Positions 5,445-64,000 are shown, counted from the stretch's first letter. The stretch: DNA of 64,000 bases from Candidatus Ozemobacteraceae bacterium (GCA_036567845.1 DATCTT010000187.1:385-64384); one strand, 5' to 3'. A program made the numbers and translations. Notes: generated from the letters alone by a model not told the origin.

Positions 5445-5546
5445 ACAGAGATGCTCCGTTGAAAAAATCAAGTATTTCAGGACCGAAGGCGAGGAAAACG
5501 CTCATCACAGAGCACACGATGAACACAGAGGTCTCACAGAGATTTC
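5445..5546. repeat. Octad-repeat element: arm fragment cgaaccacagag plus cluster catcacagagcacacgatgaacacagaggtctcacagag
   Basis: Tandem (R)CAC(A/G)GAG octads. Member of the repeat family seen at 8 or more loci in 5.4-14.7 kb. Confidence 0.6.
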
Positions 5547-5629
5547 TTTTCCCCCCATGAAGCCGTTTTCCATGGTGATGGCCCGAGACTTCTAGGGCGA
5601 CGAATGTTCAGAAGAGAACATACCCGATA

Positions 5630-5688
5630 CCGAGACACAGAGGTTGAAGAACAGTTCTTTCTCTGTGTCTCCGTGCCTCTGTGGTTCG
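5630..5688. repeat. Octad-repeat hairpin (gagacacagagg - 16-nt loop - tctctgtgtctccgtgcctctgtggttcg)
   Basis: Inverted CACAGAG/CTCTGTG arms. Right arm is identical in style to those at 12882-12912 and 14630-14660. Confidence 0.65.
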
Positions 5689-5695
5689 TCGGTGG

Positions 5696-8148: not shown

Positions 8149-8211
8149 ACGTCCTCTCCGTGTTCGGTGGCTCTGGGAGGTGTGCCCTTCCGTGCCTTCA
8201 CGGTGAAAAAT

Positions 8212-8265
8212 CCTCTGTGCCTCTGTGATGCGTCTCCTCCGTCTCTTGTGGTGAGATGTTCTTCT
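8212..8265. repeat. Solo octad-repeat arm (cctctgtgcctctgtgatgcg...ctcttgtggtgag)
   Basis: CTCTGTG octads in the right-arm orientation without a clear partner. Confidence 0.5.
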
Positions 8266-8341
8266 CTGGGAGGTTGCAAACCGGGGACGGTTTGATTATC
8301 TTTCCTTGATTGTGCTGGAGACGACACAAAAGCCGAATGTC

Positions 8342-10531
8342 ATGCCTGAAATCGAAGTAACACAGCTCCCTCGCGGTGGAACCCTCATCCGGACCCCCGC
8401 GGGTGTGCTGCAGGTCGGGGCAACGCCCGAGACCATCAAGGACACCCTGCACATCATGGGTGATGTGCCGGACACCTTCGTGTTGCCCAACCGGCTCTTC
8501 AGCACCGAGCGCGGCGTCTCGCTGGCCGACATCGAGTTCCCCGCCTATTACAACTATTTCCTCAAGAAGCGCAGCATCAAGGTCATCGGCCAGACGCACC
8601 AGCTCGAGACGATCATGGGCGTGCTGAAAGAGGCCGTGCTCGGCCCCGACTCCATCAGCCTTCAGCGGGAATACCCCTTCGGCGTCAACCGCGAGCTCAT
8701 TCCCGATCTGCGGGCCGAGATGGAGTTCTTCCGCGCGAAAGACGCGTCCGGGCTGCGGAAGATGGAAATGAGCGACATGGCGATCGGCGTCCCGTGGGGC
8801 CCGAACAACCGCGTGCCGTTCGGAACCCTTGCCCTCGAGCGCACCCCGAAGGGCATGCTGCGTGTCGTCGATGGGGCCCGGGTGCTCGCCGAAGTGCCGC
8901 TGGATGTCACGTTCGGTGACCGCCAGTTCCCCGAGCGCAAAAAGCCGTTCGAGCCGCCCCTCTTCGGCGTGACGGTCATCGGCTCGGGCCACGGCTTCGA
9001 TCCGAAGGAGATGACGAGCGGCTTCATCGTCTGGGTGAACCGCCGCGGCATCCTCGTCGACCCGCCCGTCGACTCGACCCACTGGCTCAAGGCGATGGAC
9101 ATCAACCCCCGCCTGATCGACGACTGCATTCTCACCCACTGCCATGCCGACCACGACTCCGGCATTCTGCAGAAGATCCTCGAAGAGAAAAAAATCAATC
9201 TCTATACAACCGAGACGATCATGGAAAGCTGCGTGCGCAAGTATCGCGCGCTGACCGGACTGTCGCACAAGACGTTCGTCGGGCTGTTCCATTTCCATTC
9301 GGTGACGCTGCAAGTTCCGATCCGTATCCATGGCGGTGAGTTCCGGTTCTTCTACACGCTGCACTCGATCCCCACCATCGGTTTCGAGGTGTATTTCCAG
9401 GGAAAAAGCTTCGCCTACTCGTCGGATTCGCTCTACGATCCGCCGACCGTGCGCAAGCTGTTCGACATGGGCGCGATCAACCGGTACCGGATGATCGAGC
9501 TGATGAACTTTCCCTGGCATCACACGGCCATCTTCCATGAGGCCGGCATTCCGCCGATCCACACCCCGATCAAGAACTTGGCCGAGCTGCCCGAGAACGT
9601 CCAGGAGCGGCTGTATCTGATCCACGTGTCGGAACGCTCGATTCCGGCGGGAACGAAGCTGCGCAAGGCTCCGGCCGGCCCCGACGACACGCTGGTGATT
9701 CCCGTCACGGCCCCGGTCAGCAACGAGGCGCTGCAGTATCTCGACGTGCTCAGTCACATCGACCTGTTCTCGGAGCTTCCGATCGAGAAGGCCCGGGAGT
9801 TCCTGACGCTGGTCAAGGTCGAGACCTTCCATGAGGGCGACGTCATTTTCCGGCAGGGAACAGTCGGCGAGCGGTTCTTCATGGTCGTCAACGGTCGTGC
9901 CCAGGTGCGGCGCGACGGCGTCGTGCTGAAGACCTATACCAACAACGATTATTTCGGCGAGACCTCGATGATCCTCAACATGCCCCGCAATGCCGATGTC
10001 GTGGCCGAAAGCGAGCTGAAGGTGCTCGCGATGGATAAATACGACTTCCTGTATTTCATTCGCGGCTCCGAGATCGCCCGGCACATGAAGGTCATCGCCG
10101 AGAACCGCGAATACGACACCTGGACGCTGTTCGACGAAGCCCCGCTGCTGCACGGACTGTCGGCGACGCAGCGCACCCAGCTCCAGGGCATCATGACGCG
10201 GGTCGAGTTCGCCGACGAGAAGATCATCGCGAAGGAAGGCGCCGAGCGCGATACGATCTATCTCGTCGATTCCGGCACCGTCGCGATGTCCCGCTGTGGA
10301 CGCCGGGTGGCCCGGGCGCGGCGCGGCAGCCTGTTCATGCGGATCTACTCGACCCCGGCCCGGGGGCGGCACCGGTTCACCCTGACGGCCGCGGGGCCCG
10401 TGGTCGCATATACGATCGATACGATGGAGTTTTACCGCTTTCTGGAGCGGAATCCGGGGGTGTTCCTGCTGCTGCGCGAGGCGAAGATCCGAGCCCAGAT
10501 CGTCGTCGATGAGCGGAACGGCCGCCCGTGA
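8342..10531 (+). CDS. Fusion protein: N-terminal unknown domain + MBL-fold metallo-hydrolase (class-II phosphodiesterase-like HxHxDH) + two cyclic-nucleotide-binding (CAP-family) domains
   Basis: THCHADHDSG motif (HxHxDH). Two CNB signatures (FFMVVNGRAQV...DYFGETSMI and a second repeat). Alternative TTG/GTG starts at 8306/8312. The 724-aa antisense ORF is rejected. Confidence 0.75.
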   Translation: MPEIEVTQLPRGGTLIRTPAGVLQVGATPETIKDTLHIMGDVPDTFVLPNRLFSTERGVSLADIEFPAYYNYFLKKRSIKVIGQTHQLETIMGVLKEAVLGPDSISLQREYPFGVNRELIPDLRAEMEFFRAKDASGLRKMEMSDMAIGVPWGPNNRVPFGTLALERTPKGMLRVVDGARVLAEVPLDVTFGDRQFPERKKPFEPPLFGVTVIGSGHGFDPKEMTSGFIVWVNRRGILVDPPVDSTHWLKAMDINPRLIDDCILTHCHADHDSGILQKILEEKKINLYTTETIMESCVRKYRALTGLSHKTFVGLFHFHSVTLQVPIRIHGGEFRFFYTLHSIPTIGFEVYFQGKSFAYSSDSLYDPPTVRKLFDMGAINRYRMIELMNFPWHHTAIFHEAGIPPIHTPIKNLAELPENVQERLYLIHVSERSIPAGTKLRKAPAGPDDTLVIPVTAPVSNEALQYLDVLSHIDLFSELPIEKAREFLTLVKVETFHEGDVIFRQGTVGERFFMVVNGRAQVRRDGVVLKTYTNNDYFGETSMILNMPRNADVVAESELKVLAMDKYDFLYFIRGSEIARHMKVIAENREYDTWTLFDEAPLLHGLSATQRTQLQGIMTRVEFADEKIIAKEGAERDTIYLVDSGTVAMSRCGRRVARARRGSLFMRIYSTPARGRHRFTLTAAGPVVAYTIDTMEFYRFLERNPGVFLLLREAKIRAQIVVDERNGRP

Positions 10532-10542
10532 AAGGATAACCC

Positions 10543-11487
10543 ATGATCGACAAGTTCCAGGCGGTGCTGCTCGGATACGCGATCGGTGACGCTCTTGCCG
10601 CGCCGATCGAGGATGTCATCCGCGACCCGGCGATCGGCCATCAGCGCGTGACGGGGTATGTCAAAGCCATGCCGTCCCACCCGGTCGCCCATCTCGAGCC
10701 CGGCCAGTATTCGGATGAAACCCAGATCATGCTGCTCGTGGCCGAGAGCCTCGTCGAGAAACGCTCGTTCTCGGTCGACGATCTCGCCCACCGGTTCGTG
10801 GACTGGTACCAGACCCAGAAGCTGCGCACCGCCTGGCGGTTTCCGGGAAACACGATGATGAAGGCCTGCCGCAAACTCGCGGCCGGCGTTCCCTGGGCGC
10901 AGGCCGGATTCCCGTCGGCCGGCGTCGTCGCTTCGGCCCGGGCTGTTCCTATAGCTCTTGCTATGTGGCGTTCGCCGGGCCTGCTCAAGGATGCCCTCGA
11001 CAAGTCGTGCCGGATCACGCATACCGATCCGCGTGCGGTGGCCGGGGCGATTGTTCTGGCCACGGTGATCCGCATGGGGCTCGAGGGCAGCGAGCCCTCG
11101 GCGGATGTCATCGTGAATGCGGCGATCGAGCGGGCGCAGGGCTTCGCGCCCGAGATCGTCCGGCGGCTCAAGACGATGCGGGATGCGCTTCGCGCCGAAC
11201 CGGCCGTCGCCATGCAGCAGATCGGCGTCAGCGGCTTCGCCATGGAGGCGGTGCCGGCCGCGCTGTACTGGTTCCTGCGGCATCCGCGCAAGTTCGACGA
11301 GATGATCGTCGCCGCCGCCAATGTTGGCGGAGATGCCGACGCGATCGCAGCCATGGCCGGAGCCATGTTCGGCGCGTTCAACGGCCTGGCGGCCATTCCC
11401 GACAAGTGGTTCGACCGGCTCGAGAATGCCCCCCGCATCCGCCAGCTCGGCTGCGACCTCTACCGCCTCTCCACCCCCCAGAAGTAA
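10543..11487 (+). CDS. ADP-ribosylglycohydrolase family protein (DraG/ARH-like)
   Basis: LLGYAIGDALAAPIE and GGDADAIAAMAGAMFGAFNG match the ARH signatures (GDALG...E / GGDTD). Confidence 0.85.
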   Translation: MIDKFQAVLLGYAIGDALAAPIEDVIRDPAIGHQRVTGYVKAMPSHPVAHLEPGQYSDETQIMLLVAESLVEKRSFSVDDLAHRFVDWYQTQKLRTAWRFPGNTMMKACRKLAAGVPWAQAGFPSAGVVASARAVPIALAMWRSPGLLKDALDKSCRITHTDPRAVAGAIVLATVIRMGLEGSEPSADVIVNAAIERAQGFAPEIVRRLKTMRDALRAEPAVAMQQIGVSGFAMEAVPAALYWFLRHPRKFDEMIVAAANVGGDADAIAAMAGAMFGAFNGLAAIPDKWFDRLENAPRIRQLGCDLYRLSTPQK

Positions 11488-11491
11488 GGAA

Positions 11492-11698
11492 GACCGGGAA
11501 TTTTCATCACGGAGAACACGGAGAGCACAGAGAATTCACAGAGAGGACCTTTTGGAAAAGGGTTCTTTGTAAATTCATTCTGATTAGTTTGTTGTTGTGC
11601 TTTTTTATGGTGTTGTAGAGAATCTCTGTGAAACCTCTGTGTCCATTGTGTTCTCTGTGATTCGCTTTTGTCCCTCTCTCCCCCTCAGAAGGGAACAA
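11492..11698. repeat. 207-bp unit, copy 1 of a tandem duplication: octad left arm, ~85-nt AT-rich centre, octad right arm
   Basis: tcacggagaacacggagagcacagagaattcacagagagg ... aatctctgtgaaacctctgtgtccattgtgttctctgtgattcgc. Nearly identical to copy 2. Confidence 0.8.
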
Positions 11699-11880
11699 CA
11701 CCGGGAATTTTCATCACAGAGAACACGGAGAGCACAGAGAATTCACAGAGAGGACCTTTTGGAAAAGGGTTCTTTGTATATTCATTCTGATTAGTTTGTT
11801 GTTGTACTTTTTTATGGTGTTGTAGAAAATCTCTGTGAAACCTCTGTGTCCATTGTGTCCTCTGTGATTCGCTGTTGCTT
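11699..11880. repeat. 207-bp unit, copy 2 (3' tail diverged), ends 20 nt before the moaC start
   Basis: About 97% identical to copy 1 over ~175 nt. Confidence 0.8.
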
Positions 11881-11898
11881 TTTTATAAAGGGGTATAT

Positions 11899-12819
11899 AT
11901 GACTGAATCGCTGACGCATCTCGATCTTGAGGGGCGGGTGAAGATGGTGGACGTGGGGGGCAAGGCCGTCACGAAACGGCGCGCTGTTGCCTTCGGCTCG
12001 GTGCGCGTCGGCGAAAAGGCGCTTTCCCTTCTGCGCGACGGACAGATCGCCAAGGGCGATGCCTGGGCCGCGACCCGGGTGGCGGCTATCATGGCGGCTA
12101 AACGCACATCCGATCTGATCCCCCTGACCCACCCGATCCGCCTCGATGCGGTGAATATCACCCTCGCCCCCTGGGGCGCGGAGCGCGTCGCCATCGTTGC
12201 CGAAGCCGTGGCGAGCGACCGGACCGGTGTCGAGATGGAGGCCATGACGGCGGTTTCGGTTGCCCAGCTGAACCTGTATGACATGGTCAAGGGCGTGACG
12301 AAGGGCGTGATGCTCGAAAGCAGTCGCCTGCTGCTCAAAACCGGTGGCAAAAGCGGCGACTGGATGGGCGACGGCGTCGAAGCCGGCAGGATCGAGAAGC
12401 TCGCGACCAGCCGGGCAAAGGGTATTCCCAAAGATCCGACCGACGAGGTCATGGCCCGGGTCGGGTTTGGCGTCGAGGGGGATGCCCACGGCGGCGACTG
12501 GCACCGGCAGGTTTCCCTGCTCGGGATCGAGAGCATCCGGAAAATGCAGGAGAAAGGTCTGAAGGTGGATTTCGGCTCGTTTGCCGAGAATGTCGCCACC
12601 TCCGGAATATGCCTGTATGAGCTTCCTGTCGGTTCCCTGATCTGGAGCGAGGGCGGCGTTCTGCTCGAAGTGACGCAGATCGGCAAGGAGTGCCACACGA
12701 AGTGCGCCGTCTACCACAAGGCCGGCGACTGCGTCATGCCCCGTGAGGGCATCTTCGCCCGCGTCCTCGCCGGTGGCCCCCTCAAAACCACCCACCCCCT
12801 CCTCGCCATTAGGATGTGA
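11899..12819 (+). CDS. moaC: MoaC (cyclic pyranopterin monophosphate synthase) fused to a C-terminal MOSC domain
   Basis: MTESLTHLDLEGRVKMVDVGGKAVTKRRAVA...IPLTHPI is MoaC. C-terminus FAENVATSGI...LLEVTQIGKECHTKC matches the MOSC beta-barrel / conserved-Cys region. Confidence 0.8.
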   Translation: MTESLTHLDLEGRVKMVDVGGKAVTKRRAVAFGSVRVGEKALSLLRDGQIAKGDAWAATRVAAIMAAKRTSDLIPLTHPIRLDAVNITLAPWGAERVAIVAEAVASDRTGVEMEAMTAVSVAQLNLYDMVKGVTKGVMLESSRLLLKTGGKSGDWMGDGVEAGRIEKLATSRAKGIPKDPTDEVMARVGFGVEGDAHGGDWHRQVSLLGIESIRKMQEKGLKVDFGSFAENVATSGICLYELPVGSLIWSEGGVLLEVTQIGKECHTKCAVYHKAGDCVMPREGIFARVLAGGPLKTTHPLLAIRM

Positions 12820-12833
12820 GTGATGACGAGGGT

Positions 12834-12915
12834 GCACCACAGAGACACGGAGACACAGAGAAAGCGCTCGAAAAAGAATTCTTCTCTGTGCCTCTGTGTC
12901 TCTGTGGTTCGTTGA
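12834..12915. repeat. Complete octad-repeat hairpin (26-nt arms, 19-nt loop) between moaC-MOSC and mobB
   Basis: gcaccacagagacacggagacacagagaa-agcgctcgaaaaagaattc-ttctctgtgcctctgtgtctctgtggttcgttg. Confidence 0.8.
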
Positions 12916-12923
12916 AGCCCCCG

Positions 12924-13361
12924 ATGCGTATCATACGGTTTCTGGGGAGGTCGGGGAGCGGGAAGACGACGCTGATCGATGCTCTGGTGAAGCGGCTTTC
13001 GCACCTCCGGATCGCCGTCATCAAGCACACGCGCCATCCGCTCGACCCGCCGGCGTCCGGCAAGGACACCGCCTGCCACCTGGCCGCGGGGGCCGTCGCC
13101 AGCGCCGGTATCTCGCCCGGCCGAGCCGAGCTGTTCATCCAGGGGGACGTCGAGATCGGCATCGATGCAATGATCGCGTTCGTGGCGGACCGCGTCGATC
13201 TCGTGTTCGTCGAAGGCGCCCGCGAATACGACGCCCCGACCATCCTGATCGGCGATCTCCCAGACGGTTCTATTGCGAGCAATATCATAACCCGCCTGCC
13301 TGTCCATCCGGATGTCCCTCCCGATCTCCCGCAACGCCTTCTCTCGCCCTCTCATCCGTAG
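12924..13361 (+). CDS. mobB: Molybdopterin-guanine dinucleotide biosynthesis adapter MobB
   Basis: MRIIRFLGRSGSGKTTLIDALVKRL is the MobB P-loop N-terminus. Start at internal ATG 12924, just after the repeat. Confidence 0.75.
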   Translation: MRIIRFLGRSGSGKTTLIDALVKRLSHLRIAVIKHTRHPLDPPASGKDTACHLAAGAVASAGISPGRAELFIQGDVEIGIDAMIAFVADRVDLVFVEGAREYDAPTILIGDLPDGSIASNIITRLPVHPDVPPDLPQRLLSPSHP

Positions 13362-13440
13362 GGGGCATCACGATGCGCCCGGAATGTTCTTGGGATATCA
13401 GGATACGGTTTCACCACAGAGGCACAGAGACACAGAGTTC
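13340..13440. repeat. ~110-bp tandem unit, copy A (contains near-palindrome gcatcacgatgc and octad arm tcaccacagaggcacagagacacagag)
   Basis: Direct repeat of 13452-13548, overlapping the mobB 3' end. Confidence 0.6.
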
Positions 13441-13451
13441 GAGCCGAATAC

Positions 13452-13594
13452 CGCCCTCTCGCCCGTAGGGGCGCATCGCGATGCACCTGGGATATTCTCG
13501 AGATATCAGAACCGGTTTTCAATCACGGAGGAACCAAGGCACAGATTCTTCCAAGGGCTCTTCTCTGTGCCTCTGTGTCTCTGTGGTGAAGCGG
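13452..13594. repeat. ~110-bp tandem unit, copy B (perfect palindrome GCATCGCGATGC; degenerate arm caatcacggagg), then loop and full right arm ttctctgtgcctctgtgtctctgtgg
   Basis: Alignable to copy A. Right arm at 13561-13590. Confidence 0.6.
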
Positions 13595-13693
13595 TTTTCT
13601 CGAGGAGCTAACGATCTTCTGGCGGGATGACGATAGGTATCCCGTGATAGGAGACGTCATGATGGTTGGGCTCTGCCGGAATTCCGGGATTCG

Positions 13694-14149
13694 ATGAAGT
13701 ATCTGCTGGCTCTCGATCCGGGTTCCGACAAGTGCGGGTACGCCGTGGTGCGGTATGACCGCTCTCTCGTCGAAAAGGGAGTTGTGTACCTTGCCGAGCT
13801 GCACCGCACGCTTCAGCGCATATGCCGGGCGCCGCTTCCCGAGGTCATCGTGCTTGGCAGCGGAACGGCCGCGGCTGCCGTTTCCCATCTGATCGAAGAT
13901 CTCGATCTCGGCGTCCCCGTCCGCATCGGGGAGGAGCGCAACTCGACCAGGGAAGCGCGCGACCGGTACTTCCGGGATCATCCTCCGACTGGCCTCTGGC
14001 GGCTCGTTCCCCTGGGCCTTCAGATTCCTCCGGTTCCCGTCGACGACTACGCCGCCCTCATCATCGCCGAACGGTACATCATCAAGAACAAATTGGGGGA
14101 AGAGAACGCACCACAGAGGCACGGAGACACAGAGGTCGATCAAGGATGA
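13694..14149 (+). CDS. RuvX/YqgF-family (RNase H-fold) putative Holliday-junction resolvase / pre-16S rRNA nuclease
   Basis: LLALDPGSDKCGYAVV...EVIVLG...STREARDRY...ALIIAERY parallels YqgF motifs (LLGLDLGTKTIGVAV, ...ST.EA). The 3' end runs into the octad arm. Confidence 0.6.
   Translation: MKYLLALDPGSDKCGYAVVRYDRSLVEKGVVYLAELHRTLQRICRAPLPEVIVLGSGTAAAAVSHLIEDLDLGVPVRIGEERNSTREARDRYFRDHPPTGLWRLVPLGLQIPPVPVDDYAALIIAERYIIKNKLGEENAPQRHGDTEVDQG
14106..14134. repeat. Octad-repeat left arm (cgcaccacagaggcacggagacacagagg), just upstream of the GxxExxY gene
   Basis: Partner right arms lie at 14577-14660, on the other side of the gene. Confidence 0.7.
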
Positions 14150-14529
14150 AGTCGGGGATGGATTCATATGAGCTGACGAACGAGGTCATTGGTGCTGCGA
14201 TCGAGGTTCATAAAACCCTTGGACCGGGGCTTCTGGAGTCTATCTACGAAAGATGCCTCTGCCATGAGCTGAGTCTGCGTGGCATCGAATATGTCCAGCA
14301 GCTGGAAATTCCGCTGACCTATAAGGGAATGAGTCTGGACTCGTGTTATCGACTTGACATGATGGTTGTAGACCAGATCGTTGTTGAGGTGAAGTCCATC
14401 AAAACATTCGAGCCAATTCATACGGCTCAGATTCTGACCTATCTTCGATTGACCGGTAAACGACTTGGCCTGTTGATGAACTTCAACTCCCCAGTTCTTT
14501 CCAAAACTATCAAGCGAGTCATCCTCTGA
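14146..14529 (+). CDS. GxxExxY family protein
   Basis: MKSGMDSYELTNEVIGAAIEVHKTLGPGLLESIYERCL is the eponymous GxxExxY motif. Lower GC than neighbouring genes. Confidence 0.8.
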   Translation: MKSGMDSYELTNEVIGAAIEVHKTLGPGLLESIYERCLCHELSLRGIEYVQQLEIPLTYKGMSLDSCYRLDMMVVDQIVVEVKSIKTFEPIHTAQILTYLRLTGKRLGLLMNFNSPVLSKTIKRVIL

Positions 14530-14576
14530 ATATATGCATGGAGTACACGAATGACTCGCCATGAAAGCAGAAAAAC

Positions 14577-14660
14577 TCTGTGCCTCTGTGGGTCGTTGTC
14601 TAATAAAAGCTACCATGGTCTTGTCTTGGCTCTGTGTCTCCGTGTCTCTGTGGTTCGTTG
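14577..14660. repeat. Two direct octad-repeat right arms (ctctgtgcctctgtgggtcgttg ... ctctgtgtctccgtgtctctgtggttcgttg)
   Basis: Inverted relative to the left arm at 14106, so the GxxExxY gene sits inside the loop. Confidence 0.7.
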
Positions 14661-14679
14661 AAAAAGGAAAAATATTTTC

Positions 14680-61924: not shown

Positions 61925-63106
61925 TCAGAGAAGTTTCACGAGGATGGCGGTGAGATCGTCCGCGAAGGGGGTGTCGCCGCCGAACTCGGAGACCTGGCGG
62001 AAAATTCTCTGGAGAAGCGTGTCCGGAGCCTCGGCGTGGCCCTCGCGCAGGGCCGCCTCGAGCCCTTCGACGCCGAAAAAGGCGCCGGCCGCATTCCGAC
62101 GGTCGGTGAACCCGTCCGAGTAGAGCAGCACCAGATCGCCGGGGCCGACCGGCTGCACGGTCTGACTGTACGGCCGCAGCTGCGGAAAGCCCAGCGGCGG
62201 GCAGGAACCCTTCAGCCGGGTGATGGTGCCGCTTCCGGCTGAATAGACGAGAGTCGGCGTGTGGCCCGCTTCGACCCAGGTCATCGTTCCGGCGGACAGG
62301 TCGAACCGCGTGTAGATGAGGGTCGCAAAGCTCCCCAGTTCGAGCAGGTCGCCGCCGAGATCCTCCTGCACCCGCCGCAGAATGCTTTCCGGCTCGGGAA
62401 GCCGGCAGAGACCGGCGGTGCAGGCCTCGACAGCGAGTCGGCCGATCGCCCGCGCGAAGGCGTTCTTCGTGCCGGCCCCGATCATGGCCGAGTGCAGGCC
62501 CTTGCCCATGACGTCCCCGACGAGAAGATCGAAACAGTCCGGCCGGTAGGCGACGAAGTCGATGAAGTCGCCGTCCACTACCTGCGACGGCAGGCTCATG
62601 CTGGCAATCCGGGCGCTCCCCGACTCGGCGGGAATCTTGCCCAGCAGCAGCGTCTGCTGGATCTCGCCGGCGATGCGGATTTCCTGTTCCCGGGCGGCCT
62701 TCTCGGTTTGGATCAGCTCATACTGGTGCAGACCGTTCTCAAGGGCGGAGTTCAGCAGCTCGGGCGGGCAGGGCTTTGTCAGGAACCGGTAGATGTTGCC
62801 TTCGTTGACGGCCTGCATTGCGACCTTGAAATCGAGCTCGCCGGTCAGCATGATGCGCGTCGTGTCCGGTGAAAGCTCCTTCACCTTCGCCAGGAACACC
62901 GCTCCATCCATCCGCGGCATCCGAAAATCCGAGACGACAACGGGAAAGGGCTCTCCATCTGCGATGGCGCGCAGGCCCGCCTCCCCGTCCGGCGCCGTCG
63001 TGACGCTCCATGATCGGCTCAGGATGCGACTGTACGAAGAGAGGATGTTCGGCTCGTCATCCACGAGAAGAATCCGGGGCTTCGGGCTGTCGGACGGTCG
63101 GTTCAT
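61925..63106 (-). CDS. Response-regulator receiver + PP2C (SpoIIE/RsbU-type) Ser/Thr phosphatase
   Basis: ILLVDDEPN...VVVSDFRMPRMDG (REC) and C-terminal PP2C metal-binding Asp motifs. Start at internal MNRPSD. Confidence 0.8.
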   Translation of the reverse strand: MNRPSDSPKPRILLVDDEPNILSSYSRILSRSWSVTTAPDGEAGLRAIADGEPFPVVVSDFRMPRMDGAVFLAKVKELSPDTTRIMLTGELDFKVAMQAVNEGNIYRFLTKPCPPELLNSALENGLHQYELIQTEKAAREQEIRIAGEIQQTLLLGKIPAESGSARIASMSLPSQVVDGDFIDFVAYRPDCFDLLVGDVMGKGLHSAMIGAGTKNAFARAIGRLAVEACTAGLCRLPEPESILRRVQEDLGGDLLELGSFATLIYTRFDLSAGTMTWVEAGHTPTLVYSAGSGTITRLKGSCPPLGFPQLRPYSQTVQPVGPGDLVLLYSDGFTDRRNAAGAFFGVEGLEAALREGHAEAPDTLLQRIFRQVSEFGGDTPFADDLTAILVKLL

Positions 63107-64000
63107 CGGCGCACCTCGTGTAGCGCATGGCGGCAGGCTTCTATCCAGGCCGGAATGCGGGATGTCAGCCCGGCCGCGTCGATCGCGGTCCGGTCGAGTG
63201 CCGGCGCGTCGGGATGCTCGAGAAACGCATTCGCGACGTGGACGGCGATGAGCGGGGAAAGCGTCGCTTGCGCCTGCCGGGCCGGGCGGTGATGGCCGGC
63301 GACGGCTTCCACGACCGTATCCGGCAGGCCCCACAGGGCGAGCAGATAGCCACCGATCTCGGCATGGGAAACCGAGAACTCGGCATACTCGGCGTCGGGA
63401 AACGTCTTCCCTGCCGCCATGCGGCGCTGGACCGGGCGCATATAGGCGGGTATATCGAGCATCAGCAGCTTGCCGATATCGTGCATCATGCCGCCGAGCA
63501 TCGCTTCCTCCGCCATGCGGCCGCTTCCCTTCTCGGCACGCACGATCGCCCGTGCAAGGACCGAGGCCTGGGAGCTGTGCGCCCAGATCTCGTCGAGAGA
63601 AAGGCCCGGGAGCGGAGAATCGGGGGCAGTAAAAAAGAGTTTTACATATAATACGAGAGACTTTATGACGTTCGTCCCCAGGAGCTGGGTTGCCTCGGCC
63701 GGATTCGTCACACGGCGCGGAAGGCCGAAGAAGGCCGAGTTGACGAGCTGGAGCACGCGGCCGGTCATCGAGACGTCTTTCGCGATGATGGCGCCGATCT
63801 GGTCGATCGAGGTACGTTCGGATTCGAGGGCCCGGACCAGCTCGGTGTAGAGGGGGGGCAGGCTCGGCAGGTGGGGAATGCCGCCGATCACCTTCAGCAG
63901 CTCCGGCCGTTTGAGAAGGCGCCGGAGGCCGACAGCCCGGTTGATGGCCGCGACGAGCTGGGCGGCCTGGCAGGGCTTGGCGAGGAACTGGTGGGCGGCC
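63103..64000 (-). CDS. HDOD-domain signalling protein, likely REC-HDOD; N-terminus beyond window end
   Basis: HDOD body (AIIAKDVSMTGRVLQLVNSAFFGL). Upstream in-frame sequence ...AAHQFLAKPCQAAQLVAAINRAV looks like the end of a receiver domain, open to the window edge. Confidence 0.65.
   Translation of the reverse strand, partial: AAHQFLAKPCQAAQLVAAINRAVGLRRLLKRPELLKVIGGIPHLPSLPPLYTELVRALESERTSIDQIGAIIAKDVSMTGRVLQLVNSAFFGLPRRVTNPAEATQLLGTNVIKSLVLYVKLFFTAPDSPLPGLSLDEIWAHSSQASVLARAIVRAEKGSGRMAEEAMLGGMMHDIGKLLMLDIPAYMRPVQRRMAAGKTFPDAEYAEFSVSHAEIGGYLLALWGLPDTVVEAVAGHHRPARQAQATLSPLIAVHVANAFLEHPDAPALDRTAIDAAGLTSRIPAWIEACRHALHEVRR

Follow-up and report, generated by a model that had tools for sequence, protein, structure and literature searches.

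This analysis concerns two adjacent genes in a stretch of 64,000 nucleotides (the window) from Candidatus Ozemobacteraceae bacterium (GCA_036567845.1 DATCTT010000187.1:385-64384). The first gene encodes a protein in which a metallo-β-lactamase (MBL) domain is followed by two cyclic-nucleotide-binding (CNB) domains, and the second encodes an ADP-ribosylglycohydrolase (ARH). Sequence and fold comparisons make it fairly probable that the first protein, here called the phosphodiesterase (PDE), is a bacterial member of the known GbpA/GbpB-type cyclic nucleotide monophosphate (cNMP) phosphodiesterases, MBL-fold enzymes also termed atypical class-II or class IIb. Gene-order comparisons give good support to a real PDE-ARH operon that extends across the candidate phylum Riflebacteria. 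The architecture itself is therefore not new; the pairing with an ARH, which the initial annotation of this DNA did not recognize as a described system, may be, as a literature search found no published description of the operon.

GbpA and GbpB are intracellular phosphodiesterases of Dictyostelium, in which the MBL domain is activated by binding of cGMP or cAMP to two downstream CNB domains (PMC11988041); GbpA is a cGMP-stimulated enzyme (PMC8684759). The biochemistry of the family is known only from Dictyostelium, even though its members are widespread: they occur in Leptospira interrogans, Sericytochromatia, Spirochaetota, and Riflebacteria. In these bacteria the family offers a plausible, unstudied route for ending cAMP and cGMP signals. 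The phylum-wide operon, in turn, is a lead both to the substrate of an orphan clade of ADP-ribosylhydrolases and to a possible connection between cNMP signaling and ADP-ribosylation.

Domain Architecture of the Phosphodiesterase

The list of open reading frames (ORFs) offers two starts for the PDE gene: TTG at 8306, giving 741 residues, and ATG at 8342, giving 729. Because the alignment of homologues begins at the ATG, the gene is taken as 8342-10531. The initial annotation described the product as an MBL-fold hydrolase fused to two CNB domains, and this description is borne out by Pfam, by the catalytic motif, and by the alignment of homologues. Lactamase_B_2 (PF12706) matches residues 237-428 with 36.4 bits (cut-off 27), and is accompanied by Lactamase_B (PF00753) and two cNMP_binding stretches (E 1.9e-26). 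The AlphaFold2 model of the full-length protein has a mean predicted local distance difference test score (pLDDT) of 93.5 and a predicted template modeling score (pTM) of 0.92, and the latter points to fixed packing of all four domains. In order, these domains are an N-terminal domain that is probably a pseudo-MBL; the catalytic MBL; CNB-A; and CNB-B (Table 1).

The Catalytic MBL Domain

The segment HCHADHDSG, noted at the outset as the metal motif, occupies residues 266-274. Ten residues (D240, H266, H268, D270, H271, H341, D362, H399, H407, and H428) do not vary across the 94 aligned homologues, and neither does D272; position 265 is threonine in 85 of the 94 and serine in eight. All of the metal ligands, on which the MBL assignment depends, are intact in every one of these proteins.

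This motif places the enzyme more precisely. The sequence [T/S]HxHxDH defines the atypical class-II phosphodiesterases Rv1339, YhfI, and CpdA, which are cAMP phosphodiesterases, whereas typical class-II enzymes carry HxHLDH (PMC9293780). The THCHADH of the PDE conforms to the former, in which x is a small or hydrophobic residue. Hence the likeness to class-II enzymes that was originally drawn is not one to the typical type; the nearest solved relatives are atypical, namely Apyc1 and YhfI. Assignment to the typical class (PF02112; yeast PDE1, Vibrio CpdP) was rejected, since PF02112 gives no match at E<=0.01 and since HCHADH has alanine where HxHLDH has leucine. No chain of yeast PDE1 occurs among the Protein Data Bank (PDB) matches of the MBL profile at E<=1.

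That profile search instead retrieved 7U2S (Apyc1, E 5e-10), 1ZKP (BA1088, E 2.4e-9), 7T28 (a putative metal-dependent hydrolase, E 2.9e-9), 7U2R (Apyc1, E 7e-8), and 6KNS (YhfI, E 1.4e-7), with RNase Z and CPSF73 only marginal. YhfI prefers cAMP and cGMP; Apyc1 is a zinc-dependent homodimer that hydrolyses cyclic mononucleotides, and in which the opposing protomer supplies residues (PMC9117128). Because Apyc1 and YhfI lead the relatives of known structure, and because the motif is that of cAMP phosphodiesterases, cNMP phosphodiesterase is the best-supported activity for this domain, as judged from sequence and by analogy.

Rv1339 (Mycobacterium tuberculosis), CpdA (Corynebacterium glutamicum), YhfI (Bacillus subtilis), and phage Apyc1 share with the PDE a PF12706-type MBL domain and the [T/S]HxHxDH motif; they hydrolyse cyclic mononucleotides, and the nearest solved structures by sequence profile come from this group. 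However, they are single-domain homodimers of about 250 residues without CNB domains, whereas the PDE adds one domain before the catalytic MBL and two after it. In the mechanism proposed here, D240, H266/H268/D270/H271, H341, and D362, together with at least one of H399, H407, and H428, would form a binuclear metal site at which 3',5'-cAMP and/or cGMP is hydrolysed to the 5'-monophosphate.

The CNB Domains

Over its last 270 residues the protein matches, in both sequence and fold, the tandem CNB domains found in PKG and in the regulatory subunits of PKA. The phosphate-binding cassette of CNB-A is canonical (residues 538-555, FGE...PRNADVVA) and well conserved: G539 is present in all 94 homologues, E540 in 92, R549 in 91, and A551 in 88. 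CNB-B keeps only the cassette glycine (G662, 91/94). There, the glutamate position 667 is occupied by lysine in 31 homologues, glutamate in 26, aspartate in 21, and arginine in seven; the arginine position 678 is arginine in 36 of 94; and the corresponding segment in the window reads GSLFMRIYS...RHRFT. Both of the annotated CNB domains are present, but the second is without canonical phosphate-binding residues.

CNB-A is the likely sensor, because its cassette is canonical whereas that of CNB-B is degenerate. The sequence of CNB-A, which has R-N-A in the window protein, does not by itself reveal a preference for one nucleotide. The substrate nucleotide may also bind the canonical CNB-A site and thereby activate catalysis. 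If the same nucleotide does activate, the PDE would therefore act as a brake that cNMP signals themselves switch on, which is the proposal made here. CNB-B, its fold kept and its phosphate-binding residues lost, is probably a structural or relay module. Given the intact metal ligands and the two CNB domains, an enzyme that is controlled by, or degrades, a cyclic nucleotide is the natural interpretation of the sequence, as first suggested.

The N-Terminal Domain

Ahead of the catalytic domain, the initial annotation recognized only some 230 residues of unknown nature. The region indeed lacks a Pfam family: the window sequence gives no match at E<=1, and other members give isolated, chance-level matches only. 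Nevertheless it is a conserved domain, present throughout the family in bacteria and eukaryotes, with a probable degenerate MBL fold. It is among the best conserved parts of the protein, with LPRGG, Q-GA-PETIKD, VP, EFP-YYN, and E97/G101/E126 invariant or nearly so. A phmmer search with the N-terminal 207 residues retrieved 407 cluster representatives, many of them 825-2179 residues long, and including eukaryotic proteins from Phytophthora, Chrysoparadoxa, Paulinella, and the amoebozoan Protostelium.

In several long, apparently eukaryotic proteins, the domain sits internally, for example at residues 407-535 of 2179. Such proteins include P0258 (2179 residues), P0259 (1453 residues), P0255 (from Paulinella, 1143 residues), and P0322 (1096 residues). 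In some protists, therefore, the PDE module is fused to extra, uncharacterised regions.

The full-length model, compared with the PDB by Foldseek, matched tandem-CNB proteins only, and the N-terminal domain was then modeled separately (pLDDT 94.4). With this model, the long-alignment matches in the PDB (47 of the top 50, covering 154-234 columns) are MBL-fold proteins: the best are 1ZKP (E 2.7e-4), YhfI, and Apyc1 (7U2R, TM-score 0.48), followed by RNase J, CPSF73, Integrator, and ELAC2. Matches in a viral structure library are weaker, and the annotated long ones likewise are MBL proteins. The predicted order of elements (three strands, helix, strand, helix, strand, helix, five strands) fits an MBL half-sandwich that lacks the HxHxDH segment. 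No match was found by sequence search of the PDB, and a comparison by hhalign between the N-terminal domain and the catalytic MBL profile, as would reveal an internal duplication, gave a probability of 0.2%. Because the hhalign, PDB sequence, and Pfam tests are all negative, it is the fold that carries the pseudo-MBL idea. With moderate confidence, the domain is interpreted as a degenerate, metal-free MBL-like domain.

In this role, the domain would pack on the catalytic MBL as an intramolecular pseudo-dimer, taking the place of the partner protomer with which homodimeric relatives (YhfI, Apyc1, and RNase Z) complete their active site. Long-form RNase Z (ELAC2), CPSF100/CPSF73, and INTS9/INTS11 each combine an active MBL module with an inactive, MBL-like one; and ELAC2, CPSF73, and the Integrator cleavage module all occur among the fold matches. 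These are RNA nucleases, however, and their modeled likeness to the PDE domain is moderate (TM-score 0.38-0.48) and at the level of fold alone. If the domain is a pseudo-MBL partner, it would explain how a normally dimeric enzyme was turned into one regulated chain.

Distribution and Known Relatives

Homologues of the PDE number 1391 among 5.8 billion proteins; within the top 120, most have a length of about 720 residues and align with 96-100% of the window protein. The closest (98% identity) comes from a metagenome-assembled genome of Candidatus Ozemobacteraceae, phylum Riflebacteria; at 40-45% identity the matches represent Sericytochromatia, Armatimonadota, Eremiobacterota, Hydrogenedentota, and Spirochaetia. 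Many relatives carry the NCBI name "cAMP/cGMP-dependent 3',5'-cyclic-AMP/GMP phosphodiesterase", which is that of the Dictyostelium enzyme. At least 511 loci in GTDB genomes encode a relative, including those of Leptospira interrogans and many other Leptospira; the literature search found no study of the Leptospira orthologue.

The whole architecture also occurs in eukaryotes: Protostelium, Phytophthora, Chrysoparadoxa, and Paulinella. A protein from Protostelium nocturnum (P0238) is 37% identical to the window PDE over 665 residues (E 3e-153), in an alignment that spans the N-terminal domain through CNB-B. Another long member, P0279, is 33% identical over 739 residues.

GbpA (PdeD/PDE5) and GbpB (PdeE/PDE6), which are termed class IIb, resemble the window PDE in having an MBL domain and then two CNB domains (PMC11988041). 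The likeness in sequence was established with the other eukaryotic members, GbpA and GbpB being matched through their described architecture. The two kinds of enzyme also differ in several respects. The window PDE is bacterial and shorter (about 720-730 residues), without the long N-terminal extensions of the eukaryotic proteins; CNB-B is degenerate in its lineage; and an ARH partner has been described for none of the eukaryotic enzymes.

The ADP-Ribosylglycohydrolase

The downstream protein matches ADP_ribosyl_GH (PF03747) over nearly its whole length (E 8.9e-69, 232.8 bits, model positions 2-286 of 287). It aligns full-length with the Thermus thermophilus ARH (2CWC), MJ1187, Tri1, DraG, and ARH3, with 30-35% similarity to the solved members. 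The metal-ligand positions of DraG and ARH3 are, in DraG, E28, T59, D60, D61, D243, D245, and T246. Six of these seven positions are kept or conservatively replaced in the window protein, as E23, S57, D58, E59, D264, and D266. Two motifs are altered: DDT reads DET, the second aspartate having become glutamate; and A267 replaces the last residue of GGDxD(T/S), giving GGDxDA. Both changes are conserved across the Riflebacteria ARH clade, and outgroups differ.

With its full-length PF03747 match and most of the ligands of the binuclear metal site, which it shares with DraG, ARH3, and Tri1, the protein is probably active, as a hydrolase that depends on Mg or Mn, has an altered metal site, and cleaves an ADP-ribosyl linkage. 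Equivalence to DraG was rejected (TIGR02662, 108.8 against a cut-off of 337.05), as was equivalence to Tri1 (NF041672, 106.2 against 490). Unlike the DraG and Tri1 systems, the genes around the window ARH include no visible DraT-like or Tre1-like transferase, nitrogenase, or type VI secretion context.

Orthologues of this ARH form about 75 clusters at 45% identity or more, after which identity falls abruptly to 34%. The named clusters, along with all of the ARH loci examined, are from Riflebacteria. Within the sensitivity of the search, which is limited by its word index, the orthologue group appears to be confined to that phylum.

The Operon

The PDE gene ends with TGA at 10529-10531, and the ARH gene begins with ATG at 10543. 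The interval of 12 nucleotides first reported is right to within one base: 11 bases lie between the genes. They include an AAGGA ribosome-binding site for ARH, and no terminator-like site was found between the two genes.

The neighbourhood was compared at 80 genome loci, of which 32 belong to the Riflebacteria clade (PDE identity 62-98%) and 48 to other phyla. ARH lies directly downstream of PDE in 30 of the 32, so that the pair, for which a test of neighbourhood conservation had been suggested, is indeed kept among relatives. The distance from the PDE stop to the ARH start ranges from -11 to +109 nucleotides, and in 10 of the 30 loci the genes overlap by four, eight, or 11 nucleotides; these overlaps imply translational coupling. 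The two most divergent ARH orthologues also directly follow a PDE gene. Upstream of the pair, the genes vary (LplA-like, endonuclease III-like, rubrerythrin, and others), and because they do, the pair must have survived rearrangements. Co-transcription, previously considered probable, is almost certain in view of the short spacer with its AAGGA sequence, the lack of a terminator, and the overlaps in relatives. Co-transcription and frequent translational coupling mean that PDE and ARH are made together.

In Riflebacteria, an ORF of about 140-150 residues resembling YqgF is a conserved third gene after ARH, and it overlaps the ARH stop in L081-L083 (for example, L081:6439-6867). In the window, MoaC-MOSC, MobB, and repeats stand between ARH and this ORF. 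Judging by divergent members, in which the ARH stop is overlapped by the YqgF-like ORF, the ancestral unit looks like PDE-ARH-YqgF-like, with MoaC and MobB inserted in the subclade of the window.

The block of Riflebacteria type, at 64-71% identity, also was encountered under other taxon labels (L018, L027, L032, and P0021): Candidatus Methylomirabilis sp., Candidatus Avigastranaerophilus sp., and Erysipelotrichia bacterium. Mis-binning or mislabelling is the probable cause.

Does Gene Order Reflect Shared Function?

The initial annotation supposed that the two proteins would couple cyclic-nucleotide sensing to reversal of protein ADP-ribosylation. Apart from membership in one operon, nothing was found to support this. 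The evidence that ties PDE to ARH is operon membership and gene order.

Several points weigh against the overall interpretation of a GbpA/GbpB-type enzyme that is made together with an active ARH. The literature search found no enzymology for any bacterial member of the family, and both substrate and mode of activation are carried over from the Dictyostelium enzymes and from relatives with a single domain. The fold match of the N-terminal domain is moderate (TM-score 0.43-0.48, E of about 1e-4 to 1e-3) and comes without support at the level of sequence. The DET and GGDxDA variants may signify altered or lost ARH activity. No ARH lies within 6 kb of PDE at any of the 48 loci from other phyla. 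Finally, adjacency alone is weak evidence of a shared pathway, because housekeeping genes in this neighbourhood are nearly as conserved in their order.

This last point leads to the strongest of the alternatives, to which we give slightly less than an even chance: that the two genes are joined by inherited gene order, co-transcribed yet unrelated in function and without shared biochemistry. In that case ARH might clear O-acetyl-ADP-ribose or free ADP-ribosyl adducts. ARH is followed by MoaC-MOSC in 20 loci and the YqgF/RuvX-like ORF comes next in 18, and none of these genes is evidently linked to cNMPs. Outside Riflebacteria, moreover, PDE has no constant partner; its neighbours are unrelated housekeeping genes, varying from one lineage to another (thioredoxin, acyl-CoA dehydrogenase, HisI, STAS, Rho, SOD, and DeoC). 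Simple inheritance accounts less well for a pair that outlives rearrangement on both sides, with MoaC-MobB either inserted or absent downstream, and for overlaps in a third of the genomes, more than is usual for unrelated genes.

Those same features count in favour of a true module, in which PDE and its lineage-specific ARH link cNMP levels to reversible ADP-ribosylation; this we consider unlikely. ARH might remove ADP-ribose from the PDE, from a cyclase, or from a CNB effector, or the cNMP state of the PDE might gate ARH within a complex. No other adjacency in the neighbourhood is as well conserved as the PDE-ARH junction, which holds across the full range of PDE identities while the upstream genes change, and the start/stop overlaps favour stoichiometric co-production. 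ARH orthologues apparently exist only in the phylum that has the pairing, every one examined adjoins a PDE gene, and the clade has its own conserved active-site changes. However, neither an ADP-ribosyltransferase nor a cyclase was seen among the conserved neighbours or the 29 window ORFs scanned, a set that left out ORFs at 27-46 kb and 56-62 kb. The PDE does without an ARH neighbour in the other phyla; the block keeps unrelated housekeeping genes in order as well, as plain synteny would; and the homologues listed include no protein in which ARH is fused to PDE or CNB domains. Were the module real, it would represent bacterial cross-talk between two signaling chemistries, so far undescribed.

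Other Substrates and Defence

A different question is whether the MBL domain acts on some other phosphodiester: RNA 3' ends, as RNase Z does; 2',3'-cyclic nucleotides; or a signal of the cyclic ADP-ribose type, in which case ARH would process the product and the CNB domains would be purely allosteric. MBL hydrolases are promiscuous, and atypical class-II phosphodiesterases are thought to descend from RNase Z (PMC9293780). The protein shows some NCBIfam likeness to RNase Z and to PhnP, weak and far under cut-off (22-23 bits for the RNase Z models, against 252-293), and neither a tRNA-binding exosite nor an insertion of the RNase Z type was detected in it. Since, in addition, the best solved relatives are cyclic-mononucleotide phosphodiesterases and the Dictyostelium enzymes of identical architecture hydrolyse cAMP and cGMP, we hold another substrate to be improbable, at roughly one chance in ten.

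That the pair serves in defence against phages or in counter-defence, akin to Pycsar or anti-Pycsar systems and with the PDE as a cNMP-sensing effector or an Apyc1-like degrader, is very improbable and was rejected: the Pfam Apyc1 match (PF23023) is weak, at 21.4 bits under a cut-off of 50, and covers residues 210-277 only; the PADLOC matches to Pycsar effectors and cyclase (E 1e-9 to 1e-12) run through CNB residues 484-573 only, with no PADLOC match for ARH or the neighbours; and the gene, also present in eukaryotes, holds, in dozens of genomes, a conserved syntenic chromosomal position with housekeeping genes around it, which is not the setting of a mobile island of defence genes.

Repeats and Neighbouring Genes

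Table 1. Positions of the features discussed, numbered from the first nucleotide of the window
Feature	Position	Strand	Description
PDE gene	8342..10531	+	729 aa; ORF list, Pfam, homologues, AlphaFold2 model
N-terminal domain	8342..8962	+	residues 1-207; family-wide conservation, fold matches, without metal ligands
Catalytic MBL domain	8963..9706	+	about residues 208-455; PF12706, PF00753, PDB profile matches
Metal-binding motif T265-H-C-H-A-D-H-D272	9134..9157	+	fits [T/S]HxHxDH
CNB-A	9719..10096	+	about residues 460-585; Pfam cNMP_binding 494-574
CNB-B	10109..10486	+	about residues 590-715; second cNMP_binding stretch, tandem-CNB fold
Spacer AAGGATAACCC	10532..10542	+	11 nt; carries AAGGA ribosome-binding site of ARH
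ARH gene	10543..11487	+	314 aa; Pfam ADP_ribosyl_GH (PF03747)
Tandem 205-nt unit with long hairpin arms	11466-11670 and 11673-11877	.	93% identity (D1); inverted pair I3
MoaC-MOSC fusion	11875-12819	+	314 aa
MobB	12816-13361	+	longest ORF from GTG 12816; Pfam MobB starts at residue 39
YqgF/RuvX-like ORF	13694..14149	+	151 aa; weak Pfam RuvX match, E 9e-4; cluster c3
Response-regulator receiver and SpoIIE/PP2C phosphatase fusion	61925-63334	-	signaling protein, positionally unrelated to PDE

Dispersed hairpin repeats bracket the PDE-ARH pair. They belong to an intergenic family built on CACAGAG/CTCTGTG heptads (5496-5693, 8205-8260, 11466-11877, 12825-12922, 13400-13603, and 14099-14662). The 25-nucleotide core, ACCACAGAGRCACRGAGACACAGAG, is present in seven copies at one mismatch or fewer, against zero expected, all within 5.6-14.7 kb. 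The copies are mostly inverted pairs, which would fold into hairpins with arms of 25-38 nucleotides. The 205-nucleotide tandem repeat, each unit of which holds a variant of this element, separates ARH from MoaC-MOSC, and in this genome it delimits the two-gene unit on the 3' side. Resembling repetitive extragenic palindromes or miniature inverted-repeat transposable elements, the repeats bracket several genes and yield many spurious ORFs ("PQRHGDTE", "SVPLCLCG").

One repeat hairpin, at 12836-12908, overlaps the longest MobB ORF, though only in its N-terminal extension. Because this repeat lies upstream of the Pfam MobB match, the first 25-30 codons of that ORF are probably non-coding.

Most of the remaining window (about 14840-56700) is occupied by a large envelope-glycan cluster. 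It encodes an SLH-domain protein; glycosyltransferases of the WecG/TagA type and of families GT4, GT2, and GT28; a DegT aminotransferase; NeuB; and several epimerases and dehydratases. The G+C content is lower at 21-46 kb and 56-62 kb (0.50-0.55, compared with 0.60-0.66), which suggests horizontally acquired segments.

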